Positions 15,520 through 48,507 of a stretch of DNA of 64,000 nt are shown here, piece after piece (the stretch's first letter is position 1; the number at the start of each line of letters is the position of its first letter). The notes beneath the pieces are model-generated. The model did not search any database. It was not told where the DNA came from and saw only the letters and a list, made by a program, of their open reading frames with translations. This DNA is from an uncultured Candidatus Saccharibacteria bacterium. Lineage in GTDB: Bacteria > Patescibacteriota > Minisyncoccia > Phycocordibacterales > CALRHW01. Where the stretch lies: positions 178,448-242,447 of the forward strand of contig CAYMIL010000001.1 in the NCBI GenBank assembly GCA_964390845.1, in the 5' to 3' direction. Both the position numbers and the translations under genes were made by a program.

Positions 15520-16506
15520 ATGACCACGCAACAGATTGCTGGCGCCGTGCGCGTCAAGACGATCGTGATTCAGCACGCTCCCCGGCTCGACAGCCTTGGA
15601 GCCCTCTTCCTCATCCAGCGCACGCGCGCTGGTGAGAAGGCGTTCCCTGGTTGCAAGGATGCCACTATCGAGTTCTGGGGAACCGGAACTGCCAGTGGTG
15701 GCAAGAAGCGCTGGCAGGAGAACCTCAAGGAGGGTGTTCTCATGCTCGGCGTCGGCGGAAGTCCGTTTGACGAGCATCCGAGCGCCGAGTTTGGCGACCG
15801 GAAGAAGGAGCAGAAGTCCACGATGAAGCTTGTGGCGGAACACCTTCATCTGGACAAGGATCCGCTCTTCAAGCGCTTGGTGGACAACGTCACCAAGAAC
15901 GACCTCGAGGGCGCCCAAGGACCTCTGGACCTGAGCAACATCGTGAAAGCGATGCACAGGTCTGGTGGCAACAACCCTGAGAACGTCATCGGGTTTGCAT
16001 TCGAGGCGTTTGACGCCCTGCTCGGCGAGCAGCATCAGTTTCTGCTCGCCTGCAAGGAGGTTGAGTCGGCGGCGTGGCGCAGGACAATCACCTGCGGAAA
16101 TCGGAAGCTCGACATCGAGCTCATCTGCTCAGACAACACCCTCGTCGCCAGAGCAGCAAGGCACCTCAACAACCGCCTTGCGGTCCTGATTCAGGTGCGC
16201 GCGAGTGGGAGAACTCAGATTCTCACCAACGCCAAGTGCGGTCTCTGCATGAGCAAGGTCGCCTCGGCACTGCGTCGCGCCGAACTCACCAAGATGGGGA
16301 TGCCCTCGTCTGAGATCGAGAAGATCGGCGAGCGCATGAGCGCTCCAGGGCAGCTCAAGGAGATTCCGACCTGGTGTTATCAGATGCCAGGAGAGAACCT
16401 CCTGAACGGCTCCGAGACCGCTCGAGACGTCGAGCCGACCCACCTCAAGGTGGAAGAAGTCTTCGAGATCATCTGCGCGAACATCATGTTCAAGCAGAAG
16501 GATTGA
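15520..16506 (+). CDS. GC-rich cassette A: MYG1/UPF0160-family metal-dependent hydrolase-like protein (328 aa)
   Basis: QHAPRLDSLGALFLIQR and LGVGGSPFDEH resemble the MYG1 signature blocks (THNGTFHCDEALACALL / VDVGGEYD..HRYDHH). GC content and codon usage are clearly higher than in the flanking genes. Confidence 0.55.
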   Translation: MTTQQIAGAVRVKTIVIQHAPRLDSLGALFLIQRTRAGEKAFPGCKDATIEFWGTGTASGGKKRWQENLKEGVLMLGVGGSPFDEHPSAEFGDRKKEQKSTMKLVAEHLHLDKDPLFKRLVDNVTKNDLEGAQGPLDLSNIVKAMHRSGGNNPENVIGFAFEAFDALLGEQHQFLLACKEVESAAWRRTITCGNRKLDIELICSDNTLVARAARHLNNRLAVLIQVRASGRTQILTNAKCGLCMSKVASALRRAELTKMGMPSSEIEKIGERMSAPGQLKEIPTWCYQMPGENLLNGSETARDVEPTHLKVEEVFEIICANIMFKQKD

Positions 16507-18541: not shown

Positions 18542-19174
18542 CTACTTGAAGGTCTTGAGGGTCTTGGGGCAAAACCGCTTCCACTCCTCTCGACGTGAGT
18601 TGGCGAGAGGAAACGCCGACTGAACCTCGCGGGTGCCAGCAAACGAAAGCTTCTCGTCGGAGTGCCCGCACGCGACGATGATGCGCCCCTCTTTCGACAT
18701 GGACACATCAGCGAACGAACCGTCGACAGACACCGATCCGATGCACAGCGTAGTCGTGTCTTGGGTATCCAAGGAACGCCTAGGCAACTTGAAGTGCTTG
18801 GCATCCATGGCGACAACGCCGTACAGCAGAAGCGCCTCAAGCAGAGTGCACCCGCACACCTGCTGTTCGTTGAGCTCTCGCGCGCTCACGGGACAAATGT
18901 CTGGCCCAGGACTGCGCTTAAACGAAACCCTGTACGGACCATCACGCTCGGGGTGGCGGTGGTGCTCCATGTGCTGGTCGAAGCCAGCAAAGCACCACAC
19001 GGGCGCCATGCCGAGCGTTCGCAGACCCAGGTGCACCAGCTCCGAGCTGACACCTGGGCACACGTAGACATTCCACTGATCTTCTTCGTCTTCGATGAAC
19101 AGGTTGGGGACAAACATCACGCCCATTGCTTGGTACAACTTCTGCCACAGGCACAAGTAATGACCGGGCAACAT
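18542..19174 (-). CDS. GC-rich cassette B: hypothetical protein with His/Asp-rich motifs; possible metal-dependent hydrolase
   Basis: A coherent 211-228 aa ORF in a ~60% GC segment. A GGAGGTGA Shine-Dalgarno sits before the internal ATG (MLPGHY...). Motifs HMEHHRHPERDG and VACGHSDE. Confidence 0.5.
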   Translation of the reverse strand: MLPGHYLCLWQKLYQAMGVMFVPNLFIEDEEDQWNVYVCPGVSSELVHLGLRTLGMAPVWCFAGFDQHMEHHRHPERDGPYRVSFKRSPGPDICPVSARELNEQQVCGCTLLEALLLYGVVAMDAKHFKLPRRSLDTQDTTTLCIGSVSVDGSFADVSMSKEGRIIVACGHSDEKLSFAGTREVQSAFPLANSRREEWKRFCPKTLKTFK

Positions 19175-19272
19175 TATCACCTCCATCCATAGGGTGGCCC
19201 TAGCGGGCGGAATGGTTGTCTGCGACACGCGTCACAGTTCCAGATAAATTCTGCCACAAAAAGAAAAAACAA

Positions 19273-23178: not shown

Positions 23179-23925
23179 TTACCTGAAGTACTTGTGCCAA
23201 GGCTCATCAGGGACCAGTCCCATTTCAATAAGAGTATGACAGCTCCGGTGAAAGTGAGTGCCGTCTCTGATGGAGTACAAATGAATCCACCCCTTCTTGT
23301 TCGAGTCCTTCTCCTCTATGACCTCCTGTTGAATCCTTTTGAGCTGCTGGGCACGTATGCGCAGGAAGACAGACGCCGCCACACGGAGCTCTTCGGCGTT
23401 CACGCCCTGAAGAACAGCTGACAAGTCGCGACCCGGAATCATCTCAATCGAACAGAACTCTCGGAAGAGCCTGTCGAAGAGGCTGCGCGCCCAAGACTTC
23501 TTTGCGATGATGGCCTCAAGCTCCGTTATTCTCGCTCGCGCACGAATGATGCGACGAGGAAAATAGATGAAGACCGCAGAAACCAAGACCACCAAGGAGA
23601 CCAGTGCTATCACCCCGCAGAACTGATTGATGCGCGTAGAACCAAACCCAAGGAAGTAGCAGAATCCGCACGTGGTAAAGACCACGACGCTGGTAGCGAA
23701 CACGCAGAAGGAGTACCACATGTACAGATGGATACCCGCCATGCGCATGCTCTTCTCCAGCTCCAGATCCGACCACGCGGACTTCCGGAGAGTTTCAACC
23801 TCGATGCCGTGTTTCTTGGCATACAAACCAAGGAGGGGCGAACCCTCAATGACCGAGTTTTCAATCTGAATGTGCATGGAACCATTCCTTTCAGAGAACT
23901 CAATGGGGATTTCGGGTCCCGTCAC
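23179..23925 (-). CDS. GC-rich cassette C: hypothetical membrane protein (soluble N-domain, 2 TM helices, C-terminal cytoplasmic domain), GTG start
   Basis: 248 aa in a high-GC segment. TTGACA-N17-TATTGT promoter in the upstream spacer. Hydrophobic stretches YMWYSFCVFATSVVVF and FCGVIALVSLVVLVSAVFIYF. Confidence 0.55.
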   Translation of the reverse strand: MTGPEIPIEFSERNGSMHIQIENSVIEGSPLLGLYAKKHGIEVETLRKSAWSDLELEKSMRMAGIHLYMWYSFCVFATSVVVFTTCGFCYFLGFGSTRINQFCGVIALVSLVVLVSAVFIYFPRRIIRARARITELEAIIAKKSWARSLFDRLFREFCSIEMIPGRDLSAVLQGVNAEELRVAASVFLRIRAQQLKRIQQEVIEEKDSNKKGWIHLYSIRDGTHFHRSCHTLIEMGLVPDEPWHKYFR

Positions 23926-33250: not shown

Positions 33251-34804
33251 ATGGGGAAGAAAACTACACAATCTCACAGCAACACCCAGACCGTATCGGT
33301 ACGTCCGCCGGTTATTGCTGTTATGGGACACATTGACCATGGAAAATCGTCCCTACTCGACTATATCCGGAAGTCAAATATCACCGCACACGAAGCGGGT
33401 GGTATTACCCAACATGTATCGGCATACGAGGTAGAACACACAGGACAAGATGGCATACAACACGCGATCACCTTTCTTGATACACCAGGCCACGAAGCAT
33501 TTCAGGCGTTGCGTATGCGAGGTGTAAAAATTGCCGACATTGCTATTCTTGTTGTTTCGGCGGAAGACGGCGTCAAACCACAAACACTCCACGCACTCTC
33601 ATGCATTAAAGAAGCTGGTATTCCCTACATCGTTGCCATCAACAAAATCGACAAACCAAGCGCCGACATCGATCGAACAAAACAGAGTCTTGCGGAACAT
33701 GAAATCTTTATCGAAGGTTATGGCGGAGACATTCCTTCGGTACCGATTTCAGCAAAAACAGGAGACGGAGTGAGTGACCTCCTCGACATGATGCTCCTTG
33801 TTGCTGAAATGCAAGAACTACGCGCACTCCATGACATACCCGCAGAAGGTATTGTGCTCGAAAGCAACCTTGATTCAAAAAAAGGTATCACTGCGACCCT
33901 CATTATTCGCAACGGAACCCTCTCGCAAGGTATGTATGTCGTCGCCGGCGAAAGCATGGCACCTGTGCGTATCATGGAAAACTTTTTAGGCAAAGCGATC
34001 AAAACCGCTACATTCTCAAGCCCGGTGCGCATCATCGGTTGGGACACCCTACCGACTGTTGGCGCACCGTTTATCACCTTTGCTGGACGCAAGGAAGCAG
34101 AAGCGTACGTACAAGAGGTCCGCGAACGCGCCCTTGAAGCAGCGCGAAAGAAGGCCCTACAAAAACAACACACACAAGGCACATCTCAAGAACGTGTCGT
34201 TGTTCCTCTTATTATCAAAGCAGATGCTGGTGGTAGCCTCGAAGCTCTTCTCCAGAAAATCGAACAATTACACAACGAACAAGTTGTCTTTTCTGTTATT
34301 CAAAGTGGTATTGGTGCAGTTTCAGAAAGTGATGTAAAACTTGCAACCGGCAATGAATCTGCGCTCGTCATCGGTTTTCACACCACAGCAGACCCGCGTG
34401 CAGAAAGCCTCGCACTACGATCAGGTATCACTATTCACTCCTTCAATATCATCTACAAACTCCTCGAGTGGCTCGAGACAGTCCTTCAGGAGCGCAAACC
34501 ACACGTAAGCGTTGAGGAATCCCTTGGCGTGGCCCGCATCCTTAAATTGTTCAGTGAAGCAAAAGGAAAACAAGTAATTGGTGCGAAAGTTGAAAAAGGA
34601 ATTATTGCCGTCGGCACACAGGTAAAAATCTTACGTCGAGATACTGAGATCGGCACAGGAAAAGTACGCGGTATGCAGGTATTCAAAGAGAAAGCGAACG
34701 AAGTTGAAGAAGGTGCTGAATTTGGCGCAATGATTGAAACAAAAATCGAGCTCGCCGTTGGAGATCGACTCGAATCTGTGCGCATTGTAGAAAAACAAAT
34801 ATGA
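33251..34804 (+). CDS. infB: Translation initiation factor IF-2 (short form, G domain onward)
   Basis: GHIDHGKSSLLD G1 motif, DTPGHEAF and NKID. Confidence 0.95.
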   Translation: MGKKTTQSHSNTQTVSVRPPVIAVMGHIDHGKSSLLDYIRKSNITAHEAGGITQHVSAYEVEHTGQDGIQHAITFLDTPGHEAFQALRMRGVKIADIAILVVSAEDGVKPQTLHALSCIKEAGIPYIVAINKIDKPSADIDRTKQSLAEHEIFIEGYGGDIPSVPISAKTGDGVSDLLDMMLLVAEMQELRALHDIPAEGIVLESNLDSKKGITATLIIRNGTLSQGMYVVAGESMAPVRIMENFLGKAIKTATFSSPVRIIGWDTLPTVGAPFITFAGRKEAEAYVQEVRERALEAARKKALQKQHTQGTSQERVVVPLIIKADAGGSLEALLQKIEQLHNEQVVFSVIQSGIGAVSESDVKLATGNESALVIGFHTTADPRAESLALRSGITIHSFNIIYKLLEWLETVLQERKPHVSVEESLGVARILKLFSEAKGKQVIGAKVEKGIIAVGTQVKILRRDTEIGTGKVRGMQVFKEKANEVEEGAEFGAMIETKIELAVGDRLESVRIVEKQI

Positions 34805-35151
34805 GTATCCGAGAAGAAAAAGTAAGAGAACACCTACGCCACCTAGCGGCAGAATTCCTCCAGCATGAAGCGGGACCTTCTTCGCTTATTACCGTTACCA
34901 ACGCAACCTTCAACGAACACAACAATCTTTCCACCATCTTTTTCACAACGCTTCCGGCAGACAGAGAACGTGCCGCGCTTGAATTTGCAAAACGAAAGCG
35001 TCGAGAGTTTCGAGACTATGTAAAATCTAAAACACGTATTCGAGCGCTTCCATTCTTCGACTTCGCAATAGACACTGGTGAAAAAAACCGCCAGCGCATC
35101 GACGAAATTGGTTCGCTCGATAGTGAATTGCGGGGCGACGAACAGGTGTAA
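34801..35151 (+). CDS. rbfA: Ribosome-binding factor A
   Basis: 116 aa with a KH-like RbfA fold signature, directly downstream of infB with a 4-nt overlap. Confidence 0.85.
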   Translation: MSIREEKVREHLRHLAAEFLQHEAGPSSLITVTNATFNEHNNLSTIFFTTLPADRERAALEFAKRKRREFRDYVKSKTRIRALPFFDFAIDTGEKNRQRIDEIGSLDSELRGDEQV

Positions 35152-35190
35152 GATGTGGTATAACAGAAAGGCGTCAGATAGACGCACTAT

Positions 35191-35264
35191 GGCGTAGTGG
35201 CGAAGTTGGTTAACGCGGCGGTCTGCAAAACCGCTATGCGCCGGTTCAATTCCGGCCTACGCCT
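35191..35264 (+). tRNA. tRNA-Cys (GCA)
   Basis: Cloverleaf folded by hand: acceptor GGCGTAG/CTACGCC, anticodon loop cuGCAaa, T-loop TTCAATT. Confidence 0.85.
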
Positions 35265-35306
35265 CAAAGATTCCCTCAAGAAAAAAACGTGATACAGTAT
35301 CACTAA

Positions 35307-35391
35307 GCCCGGGTGATGAAATTGGTAGACATAGTCGACTTAAAATCGGCGGCCGAAAGGCATGCGGGTTCGATTCCCGCCCTGGGCACCA
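35307..35391 (+). tRNA. tRNA-Leu (TAA), type II, with encoded CCA
   Basis: Acceptor GCCCGGG/CCTGGGC, anticodon loop cuUAAaa, long variable arm and T-loop TTCGATT. Confidence 0.85.
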
Positions 35392-35404
35392 CAATACTCC
35401 ATAT

Positions 35405-35432
35405 TTGACATTTCTTTAAAATGTGCTAATAT
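35405..35432 (+). promoter_or_regulatory. Near-consensus sigma70 promoter for cassette D (TTGACA-N16-TAATAT)
   Basis: tTTGACAtttctttaaaatgtgcTAATAT. A GAAAGGGA Shine-Dalgarno lies 6 nt before the ATG at 35491. Confidence 0.55.
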
Positions 35433-35490
35433 GGGTTCTAGTCACATACCGAATAAACGACTGACGCTCCTTTCACGAAAGGGACTACCG

Positions 35491-35898
35491 ATGAGTATCT
35501 CACGTGTGCAAGAACTGTTCAGACGGCTTTTGAAGCGGTCTGAACCAGAGTGGCCGCAGCTCGTCGCAGAGAAGGACGAGATGAAACGCCAACTCGACGA
35601 GTACACACGGAAGTACCGCAACAGCCAACTTCCGTACCGCGATCGAGCGCACGCCGCAGAGGCATACGTGCGCGAAGCTCCGAAGCTCGTCCGCCACGCC
35701 GCTACTATGGCGACTGCAGGCGGACGCACCCAGAGTCTCGAGGACTACGATCCTCGCCTCGTCGCCATCATGACAGCTGAACTTGGCTACATCGCCAAGC
35801 ATTTCAAGCGGTACCCCGGGTGCTATGAGGGTGTCGTGGTGATCATCCGGTCGCCACACTTCCCCGAGCGTCTCCAGGGACAGGTCCTGTTCAACTGA
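35491..35898 (+). CDS. GC-rich cassette D: hypothetical soluble protein (136 aa) between tRNA-Leu and tRNA-Lys
   Basis: High GC and GC3 codons. The longer ORF in the track overlaps tRNA-Leu, so the start was set at the first ATG after the promoter. Confidence 0.55.
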   Translation: MSISRVQELFRRLLKRSEPEWPQLVAEKDEMKRQLDEYTRKYRNSQLPYRDRAHAAEAYVREAPKLVRHAATMATAGGRTQSLEDYDPRLVAIMTAELGYIAKHFKRYPGCYEGVVVIIRSPHFPERLQGQVLFN

Positions 35899-35925
35899 AT
35901 CCGTGATGAAGCTATGCATCACACA

Positions 35926-35960
35926 CCCCCGACCGCACCACGTGCGCGGTCGGGGTTTTC
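35926..35960 (+). terminator. Intrinsic terminator of cassette D
   Basis: CCCCCGACCGCaccacgtGCGCGGTCGGGG followed by tttt. Confidence 0.75.
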
Positions 35961-36003
35961 CATTACTATGTTTTATGTTATAAAGATATCTGTCGTTCCT
36001 TTT

Positions 36004-36076
36004 CCGCCTATAGCTCAGTTGGTAGAGCAACCGCCTCTTAAGCGGTGGGTCCCAGGTTCGAATCCTGGTGGGCGGA
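36004..36076 (+). tRNA. tRNA-Lys (CTT)
   Basis: Acceptor CCGCCTA/TGGGCGG, D-arm GCTCAGTTGGTAGAGC, anticodon loop cuCTTaa, T-loop TTCGAAT. Confidence 0.85.
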
Positions 36077-36103
36077 CTCGGTGTCGTGCGCACACATACA
36101 TAC

Positions 36104-36185
36104 GGGCGAGTGGCGTAATTGGTAGCCGCGCTAGTCTTAGGAACTAGTGGAGTAATCCATGGGAGTTCGAGTCTCCCCTCGCCCA
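36104..36185 (+). tRNA. tRNA-Leu (TAG), type II
   Basis: Acceptor GGGCGAG/CTCGCCC, anticodon loop cuTAGga, long variable arm and T-loop TTCGAGT. Confidence 0.85.
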
Positions 36186-36189
36186 CAAC

Positions 36190-36217
36190 TTGACTTTTCT
36201 GTTTTTTTGTGTATAAT
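36190..36217 (+). promoter_or_regulatory. Strong sigma70 promoter for cassette E1, immediately 3' of tRNA-Leu (TTGACT-N16-TATAAT)
   Basis: TTGACTtttctgtttttttgtgTATAAT. Confidence 0.6.
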
Positions 36218-36245
36218 ATTTTTTAGGCTCACAGCTGTGGCCGTA

Positions 36246-37562
36246 ATGATTACGGCTCGGTGTAGAGTCGTTCTTTGGCATCATCGCAACAAGAGAAAGG
36301 TAGCGTGTCTCGTGAAGAAGAAAATCAACTGGATGTTTTGGATCAACTTGTACCTCCTGAGCGGCTGCGTAGCGGTGCTCGGGTGGTACGCCAACCCTCT
36401 GCTGGGAGTGGTGATCATCGTCATTTCCCTCTTCCACCCCGCCATGTACTTGGCGCTGGGCTGGACGGTCCGCAAGATCGCTTCGTGGGAGAAGAAGAAG
36501 TTCTTCATCTTTCCCACTGAGGGACAGATCATTCCCATTGTGAGAGGTGTCTCCAGCGGAACCGACAAAGACCGTGGTGACGCAAGAAGTGACACCAGCA
36601 AAACTGGTGGCGCCCGTAGTGGCGTGTTTGACCACTTCGTGATCTCTATCCGGGGGCACGTCATGGTCGGCAACAAGCTGGTAAAGCTTCCAGACAACGA
36701 GGAAGCACCGCGTAGCTTTTGGAATCTGCACTTCGGTGTGGAATGGATTGGCTTGTGGCAGACGGTCCAGACGTACCACTTCAAGTGGAACACCCTGAAG
36801 TGGAACGCTGAAACCGAAGAGGCCGAGATTTTTCCTCGGGATGAAATTGTGTCTTCGCTGTTTTGGAGGGCGCAATACGCATTCCTGATTGTTGAGGTGG
36901 AGGACAAAAACAACCTCCGCCTCACTCTCAAGGTTCTCGTGAACCTGAGGACGGTCAATCCGTACCAGACGCTGTACGGAACATCTGGCAAGCCAGGCGA
37001 CTGGATTCAAGCGGTCGCCGCCGCGATTACCGCGGTCATCCGAGACTTCGTGGGCAAGGAAAGCTACGAGAGTCTGATCGGGATGCAGACCGAAGGCGAT
37101 AACTCGCCCTTCATCAGGGCAATCAAGACCCTCAACACGAAGTGCCTCAATGGCAACGATAGCCTCGAGGACTTGTACGGCCAGGTCATCGACAGCGCCA
37201 ACATGATCTCGGTCGAGCTTTCGGACGAGGACATGCGTGAGATCACGCAGGAGAAGTACCGGGCCGAGCAGAAGAAGCTCGCGGCAGAGCAGGACGCTGT
37301 ACGGACCATTACCCTCGGCACCGCTGAGGCAACGGTTCGACAGAAGAACCTCGAGGCAGAAGCCGCTGGCAAGAAGGCCATGCTTAAAGCCGAAGCTGCT
37401 GGCACGAAGGCTGTACTTGAGGCAACTGCGGCAGGCTACGAGAAGATCGGAACCGCTGCAGATGGCAAGGGTGCCAGCATGTTCGCTGCTTCGAAACTGA
37501 GTGAAACCAAGGGCACCCTTGTCTTGGACAAGGACACCATTGGTCTCAACCTGAACCAGTAA
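36246..37562 (+). CDS. GC-rich cassette E1: SPFH/band-7 (flotillin-like) membrane protein
   Basis: N-terminal TM region; SPFH core; C-terminal AEQKKLAAEQ...EAEAAGKKAMLKAEAAGTKAVLEATAAG flotillin-type EA repeats. The start is 36246, with an alternative ATG at 36333. The 5' part of the ORF in the track overlaps the tRNA. Confidence 0.7.
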   Translation: MITARCRVVLWHHRNKRKVACLVKKKINWMFWINLYLLSGCVAVLGWYANPLLGVVIIVISLFHPAMYLALGWTVRKIASWEKKKFFIFPTEGQIIPIVRGVSSGTDKDRGDARSDTSKTGGARSGVFDHFVISIRGHVMVGNKLVKLPDNEEAPRSFWNLHFGVEWIGLWQTVQTYHFKWNTLKWNAETEEAEIFPRDEIVSSLFWRAQYAFLIVEVEDKNNLRLTLKVLVNLRTVNPYQTLYGTSGKPGDWIQAVAAAITAVIRDFVGKESYESLIGMQTEGDNSPFIRAIKTLNTKCLNGNDSLEDLYGQVIDSANMISVELSDEDMREITQEKYRAEQKKLAAEQDAVRTITLGTAEATVRQKNLEAEAAGKKAMLKAEAAGTKAVLEATAAGYEKIGTAADGKGASMFAASKLSETKGTLVLDKDTIGLNLNQ

Positions 37563-37597
37563 CCCTTCGACCTCTCTCTGCGATGGTGCGCCCACAA

Positions 37598-37625
37598 GCC
37601 AGTATTCCACGGACGGAATACTGGC
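37598..37625 (+). terminator. Hairpin terminator of E1 abutting the E2 promoter
   Basis: GCCAGTATTCCacggacGGAATACTGGC followed by TTGACTTTT. Confidence 0.6.
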
Positions 37626-37654
37626 TTGACTTTTATATAAAAACGTGATAGTAT
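37626..37654 (+). promoter_or_regulatory. sigma70 promoter for E2 (TTGACT-N17-TAGTAT); an AAGGAG Shine-Dalgarno lies 6 nt before the GTG start
   Basis: TTGACTtttatataaaaacgtgaTAGTAT. AAGGAG at 37715-37720. Confidence 0.55.
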
Positions 37655-37726
37655 TATACAGGTAGGCTTGCTCTTTCACATATCACTCACACCCAATCCC
37701 CCTTCCGGGGGCACAAGGAGAACACT

Positions 37727-38683
37727 GTGTTCACGTCCATTCACAAGAACGTCTCTCGTCTGTACCGTAAGGCACTTGTCGCCAAGAAGCGCTTGAAGAA
37801 GCGCCGCATCAAGAACCACGGCGGACTCAAGAAGAAGTTCGGCGCGGCATTCGGGTGGATGCGCGACAAGGCATCCGCAACGACCAAGAAGGTCGCACCC
37901 GCGATGGCGTGGGCTCGCGAAAAGTCTGCGCGCCTGTACGCACGGGCAATCGCTGCGGGCAGTGGCACCAAGAAGCGCGTCCCCGCCATGTCGGCATGGA
38001 TGCGCAACAAGGGGTCGCGAGTCCTCGCATGGTCAGGCAAGCACAAGCAGTACGCTGTGCCTGCGCTCCTCGCGGGAGCGCTGGTCGGCATGATCATGTT
38101 CCTCCCCACCAAGAGCCTTCCGTCGTTTGGAGGCACAGGGGCGATCGTCTCGTTCCTGATCTGGACCGGTTGCATCATCGCAGGCCTTGGCATGATCACC
38201 CTCGTGGTGGTCTTGCAGATCAAGAAGAAGTTCCGGGTAGGAACGTTTCTCGCGCTGATCGCATTTTCTGGATCGGTAGCAATGATCGTGTGGCTCATTT
38301 GCCGCGGACCAGCAACGGCAACCGCAAACCGCAACCTCGTGGAGATTGCTTACGACAAAGAGATCGTGGGCACTCTTCACAAGGGAGAGTGGACTCCGGT
38401 ATTCGTCACCCCGACGAACTCTGGAAAAACCGTTGCGGACGTGGGTATGGAAAGCGAGTCGCCGGAAATGGTGATCCGCTACACCGCCCGCACCAAGCAA
38501 TGGGGCTCTGTTCAGAAGGAGCTTCCTCCCTTCCGATGCGAACGGGGTCGAGGGGTTTCCTGGCAGGAGTTCAGCTCCTACTACAGGAACCATTTCGGCC
38601 TCGATGTCATCGAGGTTTGTGCACTGCGAATTGGGTGCACGACCGATGAGCCCCTGACCTATGTGGTCAAGGCACACCGGTGA
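37727..38683 (+). CDS. GC-rich cassette E2: 3-TM membrane protein with N-terminal basic W-M-R-x-K amphipathic repeats and a C-terminal soluble domain; possible NfeD-like partner of the SPFH protein
   Basis: GTG start with a strong Shine-Dalgarno. Repeats AAFGWMRDKAS / AMAWAREKS / AMSAWMRNKGS. Three hydrophobic helices and a ~140-aa C-terminal domain. Confidence 0.6.
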   Translation: MFTSIHKNVSRLYRKALVAKKRLKKRRIKNHGGLKKKFGAAFGWMRDKASATTKKVAPAMAWAREKSARLYARAIAAGSGTKKRVPAMSAWMRNKGSRVLAWSGKHKQYAVPALLAGALVGMIMFLPTKSLPSFGGTGAIVSFLIWTGCIIAGLGMITLVVVLQIKKKFRVGTFLALIAFSGSVAMIVWLICRGPATATANRNLVEIAYDKEIVGTLHKGEWTPVFVTPTNSGKTVADVGMESESPEMVIRYTARTKQWGSVQKELPPFRCERGRGVSWQEFSSYYRNHFGLDVIEVCALRIGCTTDEPLTYVVKAHR

Positions 38684-38701
38684 CGTGTCGAGTGATTTCT
38701 T

Positions 38702-38730
38702 GCGGCGTGGGACTTGTCCCACGCCGCTTT
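38702..38730 (+). terminator. Intrinsic terminator of E2
   Basis: GCGGCGTGGGActtgTCCCACGCCGC followed by tttcgttttc. Confidence 0.75.
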
Positions 38731-38754
38731 CGTTTTCATATTTCTTTCTCAAAC

Positions 38755-38785
38755 AAAAAACCCGGCAGACAGCCGGGCATTTTGT
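38755..38785 (-). terminator. Terminator at the 3' end of the small-protein array (minus strand)
   Basis: CCCGGCtgtctGCCGGG followed by ttttttg on the minus strand. Confidence 0.7.
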
Positions 38786-38794
38786 ATAAAAGCG

Positions 38795-39064
38795 TTAGAA
38801 AAAGCCTGATCCAGGAGGATTGGGGATGCCGAATGTTCTCAGAAGGACTCGAATGATGCCATAGACAGAAACCATGATAAACATTCCAACAATGCCCCAG
38901 AAAATACTACGCTTCCCGTCTTCCACATCGCCTCCATTCCCCGTGTCGCGGATAAACTTCACAATGCCGTAAAAGAATACTGTCAGCGCAATAGCAAATA
39001 GAAGAACAACAATCGGCTGAAGAATATACTGAACAACGTTATTTAACAGTCCATATATATTCAT
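38795..39064 (-). CDS. Array member P1: small two-TM protein (pilin-like core, no signal peptide)
   Basis: 89 aa with a hydrophobic helix, a charged loop (DTGNGGDVEDGKRS) and a second hydrophobic helix. Paralogous to P2-P4. Confidence 0.7.
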   Translation of the reverse strand: MNIYGLLNNVVQYILQPIVVLLFAIALTVFFYGIVKFIRDTGNGGDVEDGKRSIFWGIVGMFIMVSVYGIIRVLLRTFGIPNPPGSGFF

Positions 39065-39076
39065 AGAAAACGACTA

Positions 39077-39448
39077 CTAATTATTACCAGGAATTGGAAC
39101 ACTTGGAACAGTGATAGAACCATTATCTGAGCTACCACCAACACCAACACCGAGTGAATCACCGATAAATCGAACGAGTCCCCATACGCTTGAAGCTACG
39201 AATAGCGCAACGATTCCCCACACCATCATCTGTCGTCCTTCTTTTCGCGCGTCGCTATCTGTCGCATTCATCACAAACTTCAAAAGACCCCAGAAGAAGT
39301 ACACGAGAATGAGAGCGAAGATGATTGGAGTTACAAGTCCAATTATGTCTCCAATAGCCCTAATAAGACTCTTAATTTTTGTGAGCTCTGCAGCAAACGC
39401 GAGTGCCGGTGAGAGAAACAGCGCGCTTCCGATAATAATCTTTTTCAT
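39077..39448 (-). CDS. Array member P2: secreted small two-TM protein
   Basis: Signal peptide MKKIIIGSALFLSPALAFA; FFWGLLKF...MMVWGIVALFV...VWGLVRF motifs. Confidence 0.7.
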   Translation of the reverse strand: MKKIIIGSALFLSPALAFAAELTKIKSLIRAIGDIIGLVTPIIFALILVYFFWGLLKFVMNATDSDARKEGRQMMVWGIVALFVASSVWGLVRFIGDSLGVGVGGSSDNGSITVPSVPIPGNN

Positions 39449-39536
39449 ATACGTTTCTAACTTTTTAAATACTAATATGGTACCCAATAATAATACTACA
39501 CATACACCGCTTTAGCCCAGATGGCTGTGAATAACC

Positions 39537-39851
39537 CTAAAAACCTCCACTTGAAAGCGACTCGCCAGTTTTTATGTTGAGATTGTCTCCCACAAACTTA
39601 ACGATACCCCACACACTCATCATGACAAACAGCGCAATCACGCCCCACACCATAAACTTCCGACCCTCTTCACGCTTCCCGCTTTCTGCTGAGTGCAACA
39701 TAAACTGCGCAATACCCCACAAAAACGCAACAAATGTGATCCCAGCAACAATAGGAATGAGTGCTGTGATAACACTGTAAGCACCCCCAAGCAGGTCGTT
39801 GATACCTCCATTAGACGCTTCTGCAATATACGGGAGAAAAAGATGCTTCAT
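39537..39851 (-). CDS. Array member P3: small two-TM protein
   Basis: FLWGIAQF...KREEGRKFMVWGVIALFVMMSVWGIVKF, paralogous to P2. Confidence 0.7.
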   Translation of the reverse strand: MKHLFLPYIAEASNGGINDLLGGAYSVITALIPIVAGITFVAFLWGIAQFMLHSAESGKREEGRKFMVWGVIALFVMMSVWGIVKFVGDNLNIKTGESLSSGGF

Positions 39852-39854
39852 ATA

Positions 39855-40283
39855 TTAAAAGGTTGGCAATCGAGGCACAGATACAGAGCTCGTGCCCACA
39901 AGATCGCTTGCGAGAAAATTGACAATACCCCAGATACTCACCATCACAAACAGCCCAATAATCCCCCAAAACATAATGTTGCGTGCCGCCTCGTGCGAAC
40001 CACCATCACCACTAGCACTGTACACAAAGCGTGCAAGTCCCCAGAAGAAAACAAGGAGCGCTGCGGCAGCGAGAAGCGGTACAATTTGTCGAAGAATACC
40101 AACAAAAATACAAATCACTTCACGAAAATTTGTTGGAGGCACAGAGCACGTATTTTGATATGTATAAAACTGACCAACTTCAGACTGGGAGAAAAAGCCG
40201 GCTGCCGACGCGCTGTGCATAGGCACAATCATCTGCGCACACGACAGTATACAGAATACGATAACTAGAATCTTTTTTGACAT
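39855..40283 (-). CDS. Array member P4: secreted small two-TM protein with an N-terminal Cys pair
   Basis: Signal peptide; FFWGLARF...AARNIMFWGIIGLFVMVSIWGIVNF. Confidence 0.7.
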   Translation of the reverse strand: MSKKILVIVFCILSCAQMIVPMHSASAAGFFSQSEVGQFYTYQNTCSVPPTNFREVICIFVGILRQIVPLLAAAALLVFFWGLARFVYSASGDGGSHEAARNIMFWGIIGLFVMVSIWGIVNFLASDLVGTSSVSVPRLPTF

Positions 40284-40750
40284 AAATCTGGGATGCTGTT
40301 ATTGGACACTTGGCAGATTGTTGCGCGTACCGCTTCCACAATCACCACAGCGCCAAACAAAATCGCCGCGCCAATCATCACACCATAGAAACCCTTCTTT
40401 GCCTCTTCAAGCTTTTTCACATCACCCTGAGCCGTCACAAACTTGTATCCTGTGTAGATAACGTAGAAAACAACCACTATCGACCCGATAGGCATCACAA
40501 TCACCTTAAGCACATATTCAATAAAACCAATAAGACTGTTTGGTCCATTTACACCCTCTCCAAAGGGGTTTGGAAAATATGACAATTGGCTAGAGCCAGA
40601 ACTTCCCCCGCTCGAGCCTCCTGGATTTTGTGTAATAACCCCAGAAGATTGACCCGATGACGGGTTTTGAGTTTCTACCTGAGCAGACACAGACACTACA
40701 GACGCACACCAGAGAGTCACACACATGAGCACAACAAGTATGTATTTCAT
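40265..40750 (-). CDS. Array member P5: secreted protein with a Gly/Ser-rich linker and two TM helices
   Basis: Signal peptide MKYILVVLMCVTLWCASVVSVSA, a GGSSGGSSGSS linker, then two hydrophobic helices separated by QGDVKKLEEAKKG. Confidence 0.65.
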   Translation of the reverse strand: MKYILVVLMCVTLWCASVVSVSAQVETQNPSSGQSSGVITQNPGGSSGGSSGSSQLSYFPNPFGEGVNGPNSLIGFIEYVLKVIVMPIGSIVVVFYVIYTGYKFVTAQGDVKKLEEAKKGFYGVMIGAAILFGAVVIVEAVRATICQVSNNSIPDLCQKRF

Positions 40751-40767
40751 ACAATGATTATATAATC

Positions 40768-41181
40768 TTATTTCAGCAATGAGAAGGATTGGTCAAGCAA
40801 ACTCACGATTGTATACACAATAAGCCACGCGGAGAGCACCAAGAGAAAACCCTTAAGCACCAGAAAAAAGATGGACCGCGCTTTTTCTACCTGTTTAGGG
40901 TTATCAACAGCAGTAATATACAAAAAACCGGCATAGGTAAAAGATATTGCCGCAAGCGGAATCGCAAGGGCAATGAGATAGTTGATCACATTTTTACCAA
41001 GCTTAAGGAGATCGTTGAACGTACACTCGTCTGTAATACCTCCCGTCGACGGGTCGACTGTGTTGCCACACGGAATCAGGCCATTTCCTCGGCTTTGAGC
41101 ATGCGCCATCGATGGAAGTGCTACAGATACCGCGCACACAAGCATCACACATGCAAGACATATTCCTGAAAGTAGTTTCAT
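40768..41181 (-). CDS. Array member P6: secreted two-TM protein with an N-terminal Cys pair
   Basis: Signal peptide MKLLSGICLACVMLVCAVSVALPSMAHA, a CGN...DEC pair, and two hydrophobic helices around DNPKQVEKARS. Confidence 0.65.
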   Translation of the reverse strand: MKLLSGICLACVMLVCAVSVALPSMAHAQSRGNGLIPCGNTVDPSTGGITDECTFNDLLKLGKNVINYLIALAIPLAAISFTYAGFLYITAVDNPKQVEKARSIFFLVLKGFLLVLSAWLIVYTIVSLLDQSFSLLK

Positions 41182-41188
41182 AGAGTAG

Positions 41189-42490
41189 CTATTGTGTATT
41201 ATTAAAAAGCACCTCAAGCTCGTCATGTGCACGATCAACGGCTTCGGCAGGCGTGCGACGACCACCAGTCACAGACTCAATCATTTCTTTAAAGACAGCG
41301 TTTGTCTGATCTCTGTCTGGTTGAAGCCATGCACGAGACTGAATTGCTGCGTCGTAGAACACAGACATATACGCTTCTGTCGGACGCTGTGTAAGCAAAT
41401 CTCGACGAACAGGAGGTAGCTGTATCGTGTTGCTGAGCTCCTGAAGTGCCTGACTGTTGACGAGCATGAGTGCCGCGCTAATCGCCGTGTCTTTGTGCTG
41501 AGATGCTTTTGGAATCGCCCACGCCATCATCCGGCCAAATGTCACTTTTTGTTTTGCTTCTGGAGACTGAGGCAACATTGCCACGTTGAAGTTGAGATTT
41601 GGGTTTTTGCTTTGAATATCTGCCACCTCAGACGCGTACCCCATATAGAGCGCCAGCTGTCCGGCGATAAAGTAATTTTTGGAGAGGGGCAACGATCTGT
41701 TCCATGAATAAAATGGTTTTAGTGGATTACTAAACTCTGTGTAATAAGAAAGTGCGACAGAGGCAGGCACGAGCGGCGCGCCGTTGTTGTCGTCGATTGT
41801 TGATTCAACCTGTGAGCCGGACCGGCGAGAAAGCACGCCCCCCGCCTGCATTGCGAGCGCGCCGAGAACATCCATCGCATTGGAAACATTGGTATATTCA
41901 CCAAGCGACACTACGCTCTGGCGCACGTTTCCACCCTCATCTTTTGTTGTTAGTTTCGGCGCTAGGTCATAGAGCTCACTCCAATATTTAGGAGGCAAGC
42001 TCAAGCCTGCATTTGAAAATATGGTTCTGTTCCAAAACATTACGAGCGGGTCGACAACAAACGGAATACCCATCACACCATCTGGCGCGAGATATAGCTC
42101 ACCCTCTTCAATAAACACGTCTTTGAAATCACGTTCTGAAAGCGACGCGTATGGGATAGGATACACTTTGCTCTGATACTTTACGATAAGGTCCTGTGGC
42201 AAAAAGAATAGATCTGGTGAACGGCCAGATGCGATTTCATTTACAAGGTCCGCCTCAAGCTGTTGTACTGTTTTAGGTACATACGTAATCTGTATGAGTT
42301 TGTTTTGATAGAGCGGTGAGTTTTCTACAAGCGTTGAAAACACCTCACTCGTAAAAGGACCCCACACTGTGAGCGTTACGGGGTTTTGCGTGTTTCCAAA
42401 ACGTCCAACAGCAAAAATCATGACGCCAATCAGAATACATGCACCAAAGATAACCATGAGCACCAACTGAAATTTACTAATTTCCTTCAT
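41189..42490 (-). CDS. Extracellular solute-binding protein (ABC family-1 SBP), orphan (no permease or ATPase nearby)
   Basis: 433 aa with an N-terminal TM/signal anchor and the SBP_bac_1-type fold pattern. Confidence 0.75.
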   Translation of the reverse strand: MKEISKFQLVLMVIFGACILIGVMIFAVGRFGNTQNPVTLTVWGPFTSEVFSTLVENSPLYQNKLIQITYVPKTVQQLEADLVNEIASGRSPDLFFLPQDLIVKYQSKVYPIPYASLSERDFKDVFIEEGELYLAPDGVMGIPFVVDPLVMFWNRTIFSNAGLSLPPKYWSELYDLAPKLTTKDEGGNVRQSVVSLGEYTNVSNAMDVLGALAMQAGGVLSRRSGSQVESTIDDNNGAPLVPASVALSYYTEFSNPLKPFYSWNRSLPLSKNYFIAGQLALYMGYASEVADIQSKNPNLNFNVAMLPQSPEAKQKVTFGRMMAWAIPKASQHKDTAISAALMLVNSQALQELSNTIQLPPVRRDLLTQRPTEAYMSVFYDAAIQSRAWLQPDRDQTNAVFKEMIESVTGGRRTPAEAVDRAHDELEVLFNNTQ

Positions 42491-47946: not shown

Positions 47947-48507
47947 TCACGCGTGCGCGTGAGTACGGGCGTATTTACGCACCACTTCTTCAGTCACACC
48001 CGTCTTCTCTGCAATCACAGGCACATCATCGTCCCACGAAGGACTCATGCCACGATGCCTGCTCAGAAACTGCCCGATTCTGTTGAAATCGGCCTCTTGA
48101 CTGAACCTCTTTGCCTGCGCAGCCGTCGGCGGCTTACGAATGTGTGGCGCATTCTTGACCCTGATACTGTAGCTGCGCACACCAGAGATGTTCGACGTGA
48201 GAACAATTTCAAGCTTGGGAAAGGGCTTGATGATTTCACCGAGCATACCACTGATGCGTTGCAGTTCCTCCTGATTGAGACGAACGTATCGATCTGGCTC
48301 AATTTCCATCTTTCGACGCTTGTCGGTATGCGGAATCCAGACATCAATCACGCTCCAGCCAAAACCATAGCGGGAGATCACGTTCATTCCGATAGTCCCC
48401 CTGTAGCGCTCTGCGACCTCCTCAATCTTCTGTTGAAGCTGCCGATTGCAAGCCTTAAGAACAGGTCTTACTTTCTCCCAATCAACATAGACCTTTTGAA
48501 ACGTCAT
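47947..48507 (-). CDS. Cassette F (moderately GC-rich): hypothetical soluble protein (186 aa)
   Basis: A strong Shine-Dalgarno (AAGGAGGAAG) lies 3-6 nt before the ATG at 48507. A TTGACA-containing promoter lies upstream. No recognisable family. Confidence 0.55.
   Translation of the reverse strand: MTFQKVYVDWEKVRPVLKACNRQLQQKIEEVAERYRGTIGMNVISRYGFGWSVIDVWIPHTDKRRKMEIEPDRYVRLNQEELQRISGMLGEIIKPFPKLEIVLTSNISGVRSYSIRVKNAPHIRKPPTAAQAKRFSQEADFNRIGQFLSRHRGMSPSWDDDVPVIAEKTGVTEEVVRKYARTHAHA

Follow-up and report, generated by a model that had tools for sequence, protein, structure and literature searches.

Introduction

SPFH proteins are universal membrane organisers, and to our knowledge their clients are established in only a few cases, namely FtsH for HflK/C and NfeD for stomatins and flotillins. 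An SPFH gene accompanied by the gene of a small membrane partner is a classic operon theme, in which the partner NfeD comprises three hydrophobic stretches and a soluble β-domain (PMC2636767). The C-terminal domain of NfeD adopts a five-stranded OB-fold β-barrel (2EXD, 2K12; PMC4208085). Here we analyzed a 64,000-nucleotide stretch of the genome of an uncultured Candidatus Saccharibacteria bacterium (GenBank assembly GCA_964390845.1, contig CAYMIL010000001.1, positions 178,448 to 242,447 of the forward strand; hereafter the window), in which three GC-rich genes, termed D, E1, and E2, are interspersed with four tRNA genes and followed by an array of VirB2-like pilin genes, a kind of array that has been described in 383 Patescibacteria assemblies (PMC12102498).

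A sequence-only reading of the window had treated the three genes as one accessory module without a counterpart in operon catalogues; the latter claim was overstated, since operons of an SPFH gene and a membrane-partner gene are classic (PMC2636767). What the locus holds is a member of a candidate phyla radiation (CPR) lineage of SPFH proteins, E1, with a non-NfeD-looking partner, E2, at a fixed tRNA-flanked slot, and it is neither a three-gene island nor a demonstrated new system. On balance, E1 and E2 probably represent the local form of a two-gene membrane module found in the last slot of the same tRNA frame in most relatives, with E2 assigned to it by position and architecture alone. We found no paper on SPFH genes in CPR bacteria in the searchable literature, and the text describing the VirB2 arrays mentions neither SPFH genes nor tRNA genes (PMC12102498).

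The SPFH protein E1

Family profiles, synteny, and codon-position GC content identify E1 (36312..37562, plus strand) as a divergent SPFH/Band-7 membrane protein. The Pfam Band_7 model scored 20.8 bits on E1 alone, under its cutoff of 23.6, and matched 7 of the 17 members of the E1 family, the best of them at an E-value of 2.5e-8. When the E1-family profile was compared with solved structures, the strongest match was PH stomatin (3bk6, 2.1e-9), followed after the PH stomatin entries by HflK (1.3e-5) and then by human stomatin (7e-4); flotillin-2 (1win) was far behind stomatin and HflK with an E-value of 0.73, and no flotillin-specific similarity was detected. Within the SPFH proteins, E1 is divergent and by sequence comes closest to stomatin and HflK; its length is flotillin-like, and its helical tail is rich in A/E. 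The earlier description of E1 as an SPFH protein with an A/E-rich coiled-coil tail is borne out.

Each of the described SPFH systems shares some of these features. Like the prokaryotic stomatins (SPFH1) of the pairs PH1511/PH1510 of Pyrococcus and QmcA(YbbK)/YbbJ of E. coli, the E1 family consists of membrane-anchored SPFH proteins with PH stomatin as the best structure match, but E1, at 416-438 aa and with an extended A/E-rich tail, exceeds the usual stomatin length, and a ClpP-type protease domain is missing. The flotillins (SPFH2) FloT/YuaG-YuaF and YqiK-YqiJ are similar to E1 in the hairpin, the SPFH domain, the long Ala/Glu-rich coiled coil, and overall length, and in operons with a partner that has three transmembrane (TM) segments and a β-domain (PMC2636767), whereas the profile similarity of E1 to flotillin is only that given above, the partner was not recognized as NfeD2 by any test run, and the SPFH gene comes first here while yuaF and yqiJ precede theirs (PMC2636767). 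With HflK/C-FtsH the locus shares the second-best structure match and the concept of an SPFH cage enclosing a membrane-protein client. It differs in having a single SPFH gene and neither FtsH nor another protease nearby, and in a hairpin that would place the SPFH domain in the cytoplasm rather than outside it.

The hairpin comprises hydrophobic segments at residues 30-48 and 51-73 (numbered in the 438-aa form) with K/R clusters alongside, which constitute an N-terminal membrane anchor. Under the positive-inside rule, the N-terminus (MKKKINW, followed by both hydrophobic segments and RKIASWEKKK) is expected to fold into a hairpin whose two ends lie in the cytoplasm, and helices 29-49 and 51-81 are the sole confident part of the single-sequence AlphaFold2 (AF2) model.

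The open reading frame (ORF) of E1 opens at 36159, inside tRNA-Leu(TAG). Alignment with the N-termini of its two closest homologues, from the related loci L004 and L008 described below, makes the GTG at 36312 the likely start; the alternative ATG at 36246 would give the longer of the two lengths. A 511-aa ORF on the opposite strand (36144..37679, minus) was considered as a real gene and rejected. It has no homologue in any related locus and a GC content at third codon positions (GC3) of 0.54 compared to 0.68 at first positions (GC1), whereas E1 has many homologues, and we concluded that E1 on the plus strand is the real gene and the antisense ORF a by-product of a GC3-rich gene on the opposite strand. 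Public gene calls vary in this respect. In ENA contig ERZ27309394 k141_167102, a 483-aa antisense ORF (L001 8286-9737) is called instead of E1, and E2 starts at residue 45 both there and in the 274-aa form at NCBI/ENA; the Logan gene calls contain E1 together with the 318-aa E2.

A conserved tRNA-flanked slot in related genomes

With RbfA as the anchor, we compared the locus with 74 loci from species-representative genomes and 80 from metagenomes. Every named locus belongs to a metagenome-assembled genome (MAG) of Paceibacterota/Parcubacteria or another CPR lineage, the closest RbfA being 67-68% identical to that of the window. The order tRNA-Cys-Leu(TAA)-Lys-Leu(TAG) after rbfA is kept in 42 related loci, and in 31 loci a pilin array lies 3' of tRNA-Leu(TAG); in the 29 of these frames with the four tRNAs in order, the distance is 0.35-4.5 kb (minimum 347 bp, median 2.6 kb). 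The shared tRNA order and downstream array indicate that this arrangement is ancestral to a broad clade. Paceibacterota chromosomes conserve this frame as the succession of initiation factor 2 (IF2), rbfA, the four tRNAs, a 2-4 kb slot, and an array of VirB2-like pilin genes.

In the window, ARAGORN and Rfam placed tRNA-Cys(GCA) at 35191..35265 (Rfam tRNA, 67.9 bits), tRNA-Leu(TAA) at 35307..35391, tRNA-Lys(CTT) at 36004..36077, and tRNA-Leu(TAG) at 36104..36186, all on the plus strand and as the sequence-only reading had located them. The first of them lies 3' of rbfA, which is preceded by the genes of a DUF4446 protein and a short IF-2. tRNA-Leu(TAG) is the left border of the slot that holds E1 and E2, and the right border is a group of six VirB2/TrbC-like pilin genes of a type IV secretion system (T4SS) at 38795..41265 on the minus strand (Pfam T4SS_pilin, TrbC), which encode proteins of 89-165 aa.

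A tblastn search of the fetched loci with E1 found similarity of 22-34% identity in five genomes, a few hundred bases 3' of tRNA-Leu(TAG), and iterated hidden Markov model (HMM) searches extended this to 26 homologous ORFs, all on the plus strand and in the same slot. SPFH genes were detectable by HMM in 19 of the 31 complete frames, and Band_7-positive proteins occupy the same position in two more (L052, 5e-6; L042, 3e-3), so that at least 21 of the 31 related loci carry an SPFH gene between tRNA-Leu(TAG) and the pilin array; L074, L015, and L020 gave weak hhalign signals. Sequence searches outside these loci were far less productive. A word-index homology search with E1 gave just itself among the matches listed, with low-complexity A/E words probably crowding the candidates, and the same kind of search with a 17-sequence E1 alignment gave only 3 proteins. 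In a metagenome scan with the alignment of E1 and its L004 and L008 homologues, patterns were matched and no relative was confirmed.

The gene following the SPFH gene is as regular as the SPFH gene itself. Across 25 loci, a membrane protein is encoded next on the plus strand after every SPFH gene examined, except in two genomes with tandem SPFH genes. These partners have 123-399 aa, 1-6 hydrophobic segments, and a C-terminal region of ~100 aa that lacks hydrophobic segments and is apparently of β-type. The gap within the pair is 40 bp or less in 17 of 25 cases and a 4-bp overlap in 6, and these short gaps and overlaps are an operon signature. One family linked by phmmer comprises 12 of the 25 partners, among them those of L004 and L008, the nearest relatives. 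In the window, the gene directly 3' of E1 is E2.

Several larger slots were observed among the relatives (L016 9705-13141, L086 2421-5857, L023 13613-16762, L043 4201-8441, and L087 15816-19084). In these, the SPFH gene is preceded by genes for a receiver domain on its own (Response_reg, 5e-15 to 6e-22) and for a single-TM protein rich in Pro. The tandem SPFH genes are short (286-294 aa, two per slot) and occur in L016/L086 and L023. In L043 and L113, the partner is followed by a third gene whose product has a related C-terminal region.

The probable membrane partner E2

E2 (37727..38683, plus strand) encodes a membrane protein of 318 aa from a GTG start located 6 nt after an AAGGAG. Its first 107 residues contain 31 K/R and 2 D/E and the Trp-basic repeats GWMRDKAS, AWAREKSA, and AWMRNKGS. 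TM segments follow at approximately 108-126, 136-164, and 172-193, and then a β-rich soluble C-domain of ~120 aa; three TM segments, three Trp-basic repeats, and a soluble C-domain had all been noted previously. Loop 2 carries 4 K/R and the C-domain is neutral. Together, the basic N-terminal region and the charge of loop 2 indicate an N-in, C-out orientation, by which the C-domain is predicted to face outward.

Motifs of Trp and basic residues also occur in the cytoplasmic N-terminal regions of partners from other genomes. Those of E2 (37727-38047) read GWMRDK, AWAREK, AWMRNK, and AWSGKHK, the partner in L004 (14072-14170) has NWLRKN, GWRNRK, and KWIKTQ, and similar motifs are found in L030, L050, and L121. 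Such a motif could serve at the membrane interface or in SPFH binding.

Homologues of E2 were not found in the searches made with it. Exhaustive phmmer against 1.84 billion representatives and the word-index homology search each returned E2 alone, and Pfam, NCBIfam, PHROGs, and PADLOC contain no family that matches it. The partner-family HMM gave E2 an E-value of 0.29 (rank 21 of 5890 ORFs), and hhalign performed no better than on shuffled controls. Since E2 could not be joined to the partner family, it is a positional and architectural analogue of these partners whose homology to them is unproven.

The architecture of NfeD, with three hydrophobic stretches and then a soluble all-β domain, is also that of E2, and the sequence-only reading had considered E2 a possible NfeD-like partner. 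The pair could accordingly be a canonical NfeD-SPFH operon that diverged beyond sequence recognition, in which E2 is genuinely homologous to NfeD and binds the SPFH protein through its β-domain. The position next to an SPFH gene agrees with this explanation, as do the three hydrophobic stretches and the all-β domain (PMC2636767). Moreover, identity between the known NfeD2 proteins and other NfeDs is only ~21% (PMC2636767), for which reason the failure of E2 at the sequence level is not decisive. However, no Pfam NfeD match was obtained at E<=5 for E2 or for 11 of its positional analogues, and the single-sequence model of E2 (pLDDT 61.6) suggests eight strands and one helix in a jelly-roll-like sandwich, a low-confidence fold that is not the five-stranded OB barrel. 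E2 also exceeds the NfeD architecture by its 107-aa basic N-terminal region and at 318 aa is about twice as long as the short NfeDs of 140-150 aa. We consider a hidden NfeD quite unlikely. Relative to the stomatin/NfeD operons, the pair is alike in the often overlapping partner gene and in hydrophobic stretches followed by an all-β soluble domain (PMC2636767), and it differs in a partner without NfeD sequence signal whose soluble domain is modelled as eight-stranded and jelly-roll-like and is predicted to face outward.

If E1 and E2 are the local version of the conserved module, E1 would act as the scaffold, held by its N-terminal hairpin with the SPFH domain and coiled coil on the cytoplasmic side of the membrane. 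Its oligomers might form a ring or cage that fences off a patch of membrane, as stomatin, flotillin, and HflK/C suggest by analogy. E2 would be the client or partner, with its basic Trp-rich N-terminal region and three TM helices in or under the E1 patch and its C-terminal β-sandwich domain displayed on the cell surface.

A number of observations weigh against this assignment. The homology of E2 to the partner family is unproven, as phmmer, the family HMM, and hhalign were all non-significant, and E2 may be a non-homologous replacement of the usual partner. Its model is weak, without a Foldseek match in the PDB at E<=1e-3, which leaves the fold assignment provisional; that of E1 (pLDDT 41.7) is unusable, so the ring or cage is drawn by analogy only. 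Some members of the E1 family have a single N-terminal TM segment, and their SPFH domain could thereby be extracellular. The slot does not always hold an SPFH gene, none being demonstrable in ten of the 31 frames; the locus counts include duplicates (L016 and L086, for example, are identical). Finally, the pair genes are separated by 164-383 bp in this genome, L004, L007, and L008, and the 164 bp between E1 and E2 contain a terminator-like hairpin detected by a hairpin scan (37595..37638, hairpin 37595-37628, plus strand; a 14-bp stem followed by ACTTTTATAT) and a separate promoter-like site (37626..37654, plus strand; TTGACT-17-TAGTAT with a TG, 9 of 12 positions). With these two signals in between, E1 and E2 are predicted to have separate transcripts in the window, and their co-expression there is uncertain.

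Variable inter-tRNA gaps and the question of an island

The gaps between the tRNA genes of the frame serve as slots for exchangeable genes. Their lengths span 0 to 5.7 kb, with values above 300 bp in 14 (Cys-Leu), 16 (Leu-Lys), and 11 (Lys-Leu) of the 42 loci. Their cargo differs by genome and includes a 1717-aa protein with peptidoglycan (PG)-binding and fn3 domains, a GDSL lipase, Fic, PAP2, DAO (an FAD oxidoreductase), and spermidine-synthase-like proteins as well as Pfam-less proteins; examples of cargo-bearing gaps are L070 11113-16792, L021 2583-7464, L087 10813-15618, and L009 11175-14697. No integrase domain was found in the ten largest inter-tRNA ORFs of the relatives.

Gene D (35491..35898, plus strand), which encodes a soluble orphan protein of 135 aa, lies in one of these gaps, between tRNA-Leu(TAA) and tRNA-Lys. 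The equivalent gap ranges from 4 to 5680 bp across relatives and in the nearest of them holds Pfam-less ORFs (162 aa with GC3 of 0.67 in L008, and 111 aa with GC3 of 0.69 in L004). D has no match in Pfam, PHROGs, NCBIfam, PADLOC, PDB sequences, phages, or viral contigs, its 90% sequence cluster contains only its own two start variants by exact-sequence look-up, and it is unlike the other high-GC3 ORFs of the window. Among the slot ORFs of 150 related loci, no relative of D was present; the billion-scale protein sets were not searched with D. D is best read as independent, lineage-specific orphan cargo of a variable inter-tRNA slot, functionally unrelated to E1 and E2. The proposal that the three genes form one module is contradicted by these results, D being without a relative anywhere searched and located in a gap that carries unrelated cargo elsewhere. 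Conservation in relatives at this tRNA locus, which the sequence-only reading had itself named as evidence against its proposal, was observed for the E1/E2-type pair and not for D.

The same comparison bears on the idea of a recent genomic island in a tRNA hotspot, to which D, E1, and E2 would have come jointly as one accessory system. The three genes have GC and GC3 well over the genome background, tRNA genes flank them, and the searches made with D and with E2 found no relatives, all of which an island would explain. On the other hand, the E1/E2 slot is occupied in nearly all relatives, SPFH-partner pairs stand in the same slot in at least 21 of 31 loci, the proteins most similar to E1 come from the nearest genomes, and the cargo in D's position is unrelated elsewhere. 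Neither an integrase domain in D, E1, or E2 (Pfam, PHROGs, NCBIfam, and PADLOC) nor a direct repeat matching a tRNA end (within 34800-39200) was found, in line with the earlier statement that integrase and att-type duplications are missing, and the phage, plasmid, and viral-contig searches with the three genes had no match; a BFVD fold search gave generic low-TM matches only. We consider a one-off island quite unlikely.

An anti-phage defence or abortive-infection module in a variable hotspot, which the sequence-only reading had also contemplated, is very improbable. It would fit a slot next to tRNA genes that is hypervariable and foreign in composition and holds membrane proteins that evolve fast, but D, E1, and E2 had no match in PADLOC-DB 2.0 at E<=1, the Pfam, NCBIfam, and PHROGs scans detected no nuclease, NTPase, or other effector domain, and the slot keeps one conserved pair type instead of rotating different systems.

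tRNA-Lys(CTT) is identical over 74 of 74 positions to the L007 and L008 copies, with exact runs of up to 74 nt, and tRNA-Leu(TAG) is 96-99% identical to the L004, L007, and L008 copies, although the RbfA proteins are just 64-67% identical; across the wider locus set the frame tRNAs are ~77-81% identical. Near-identical tRNA-Lys and tRNA-Leu(TAG) genes are possible recombination anchors. Replaceable cassettes at fixed loci are familiar from capsule and O-antigen loci, which are exchanged through conserved flanks. The present locus resembles tRNA islands and such cassettes in its foreign composition, tRNA borders, and variable content between conserved flanks; it differs in having no integrase, att repeat, or mobility gene and in a last slot that keeps one pair type, and exchange through its flanks is an inference.

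Third-position composition and evolution of the pair

The GC content is 0.53-0.65 over approximately 35550-38700 and ~0.46 in the rest of the window, which confirms the raised GC and foreign composition reported from the sequence. GC3 values of D (0.70), E1 (0.72), and E2 (0.74) compare with 0.38-0.48 in the housekeeping genes of the window, while GC1 and GC2 of the three genes are ordinary, the GC excess being confined to third codon positions. GC3 is far above GC2 solely in the called frames of D (0.70 vs. 0.42), E1, and E2, and this restriction of the periodicity supports all three as real genes.

We compared GC3 of the pair with that of its hosts in 23 genomes, where GC3 of the IF2 gene spans 0.15-0.86, that of the SPFH gene 0.33-0.70, and that of the partner 0.39-0.74. 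In regressions on IF2 GC3, rbfA (slope 1.01, r 0.96) and also the fast-evolving pilin genes of the same loci (slope 0.76, r 0.94) track the host, whereas the SPFH gene (slope 0.25, r 0.42) and the partner (slope 0.25) do so only weakly. The pair lies above its host in 20 or 21 of the 23 genomes; in the highest-GC genomes it lies below, the SPFH gene in three and the partner in two. In Mantel tests, SPFH similarity correlated with that of IF2 (0.34, range 0.30-0.34, reached by at most 6 of 2000 permutations) and not significantly with that of rbfA (0.11, 320 of 2000 permutations), IF2 and rbfA correlating with each other at 0.57. The pair evolves about 5 times faster than IF2.

At a protein identity of 20-30%, synonymous sites would be expected to have reached the equilibrium of the host, which those of the pair have not; on this ground we prefer cassette replacement as the explanation. 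Cassette alleles would have been repeatedly replaced from a shared mid-GC pool through recombination in the conserved flanks. The pattern suggests recurrent cassette replacement at a fixed tRNA-flanked slot, the cause being inferred, and such replacement would explain an island-like composition without an integrase or att site. Against this stands that the replacement is deduced from the GC3 pattern and not from mapped recombination breakpoints, and that GC-biased gene conversion or selection on synonymous sites could be the source of the pattern.

The latter processes are central to an alternative in which the pair is strictly vertical and its GC3 has a local cause, be it selection on synonymous sites or GC-biased gene conversion at a recombination hotspot. 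The positive correlation of SPFH with IF2 similarity speaks for vertical descent, and so does the restriction of the bias to third positions, with GC1 and GC2 of E1 ordinary. Congruence with rbfA is absent, however, and GC-biased conversion predicts otherwise than the GC3 values below those of the host in the highest-GC genomes. We regard strict vertical descent as unlikely. Were it true, together with a local mutation bias, the finding would reduce to a diverged SPFH operon and one orphan gene.

Cassette replacement also admits a farther-reaching proposal, namely that a hypervariable cassette of an SPFH protein and a surface-exposed β-sandwich protein is exchanged between lineages of very different GC content via the tRNA and pilin flanks and serves the surface or host contact of the episymbiont, making the locus a new type of diversity locus of CPR bacteria, integrase-free and driven by recombination, with a non-NfeD partner class. 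As a whole, this proposal is speculative and its truth would surprise us.

Relation to the pilin array

The six-gene array directly 3' of the pair is of the kind described in Patescibacteria (PMC12102498), and its adjacency to the slot is kept in 31 loci. The pair might be an accessory to a VirB2-like pilus or T4SS host-contact apparatus, for which the SPFH scaffold would organise a membrane platform and E2 would provide a surface component. VirB2 arrays are widespread in Patescibacteria, one being reported as essential in a cultured Saccharibacteria strain (PMC12102498), and a study of Agrobacterium reports T4SS components from detergent-resistant membranes (PMC8656257). E2 residues 96-154 (38012-38188) match F-pilin TraA (5ler) weakly at E 0.054, and another pilin (9moq) at E 0.15.

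The TraA match is non-significant, however; it spans the first two TM segments and probably reflects composition. The two genes of the pair converge with the array and do not share its operon, they are compositionally distinct from the array, whose genes track host GC3, and no VirB4 or VirB6 gene occurs within 10 kb of the array. Since the whole neighbourhood is syntenic, the adjacency may reflect gene order alone. Neither homology to a T4SS component nor a shared operon was found, and conserved adjacency is the only link; a role of the pair in the pilus apparatus accordingly has a low probability.

Other features of the locus

Each of the three genes has a sigma-70-like site on its 5' side and a hairpin with a T-tract on its 3' side, which agrees with the claim that each has its own promoter and terminator. 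Upstream of D, the site TTGACA-16-TAATAT with a TG 5' of the -10 element (35405..35432, plus strand) matches at 10 of 12 positions; upstream of E1, TTGACT-16-TATAAT (36190..36217, plus strand) matches at 11 of 12. The TATAAT promoter had been placed 5 nt after the tRNA; the site exists, but it is the -35 hexamer that lies 4 nt after the tRNA end, with TATAAT at 26 nt. Four promoter-like sites occur in the region compared to 2.8 +/- 1.6 expected from shuffled sequences, and a match alone is weak evidence. The probable terminator of D is a bulged GC-rich hairpin followed by TTTT (35926..35959, plus strand), which was read by eye from the sequence and is not listed by the hairpin scan, as the latter allowed no bulges. 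E2 is followed by a terminator-like hairpin of 11 pairs, 9 of them GC, and TTTCGTTTTC (38702..38737, hairpin 38702-38727, plus strand).

Two further candidates were dismissed. The 12-mer AAAAACGTGATA is common to the region upstream of tRNA-Leu and the E2 promoter, and ~0.6 such repeats are expected by chance in 4.4 kb. An antisense match of tRNA-Lys to the Rfam family 'Plastid-ycf2' is spurious, with 30 bits against a gathering score of 65.7.

Four other GC3-rich ORFs were observed in the window at 15520-16506 (plus), 18542-19186 (minus), 23179-23877 (minus), and 47947-48507 (minus). They encode 186-328 aa, have GC3 of 0.58-0.78 and no Pfam match, and are unlike each other and D, E1, and E2. 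Orphan genes rich in GC3 seem to form a class scattered across the genome. Acquired genes are usually AT-rich, and the bias of this class is the opposite.

Implications

CPR genomes are usually regarded as streamlined and static. The GC3 slope of 0.25 for the pair, against 0.76-1.0 in neighbouring genes, is a clean and testable indication that gene flow, or some other force, acts specifically on this locus in such genomes. A clade-wide SPFH pair with a non-NfeD-looking partner would add a new class of SPFH client, and the fixed slot beside the VirB2-like arrays points to a candidate cell-surface module in uncultured episymbionts.

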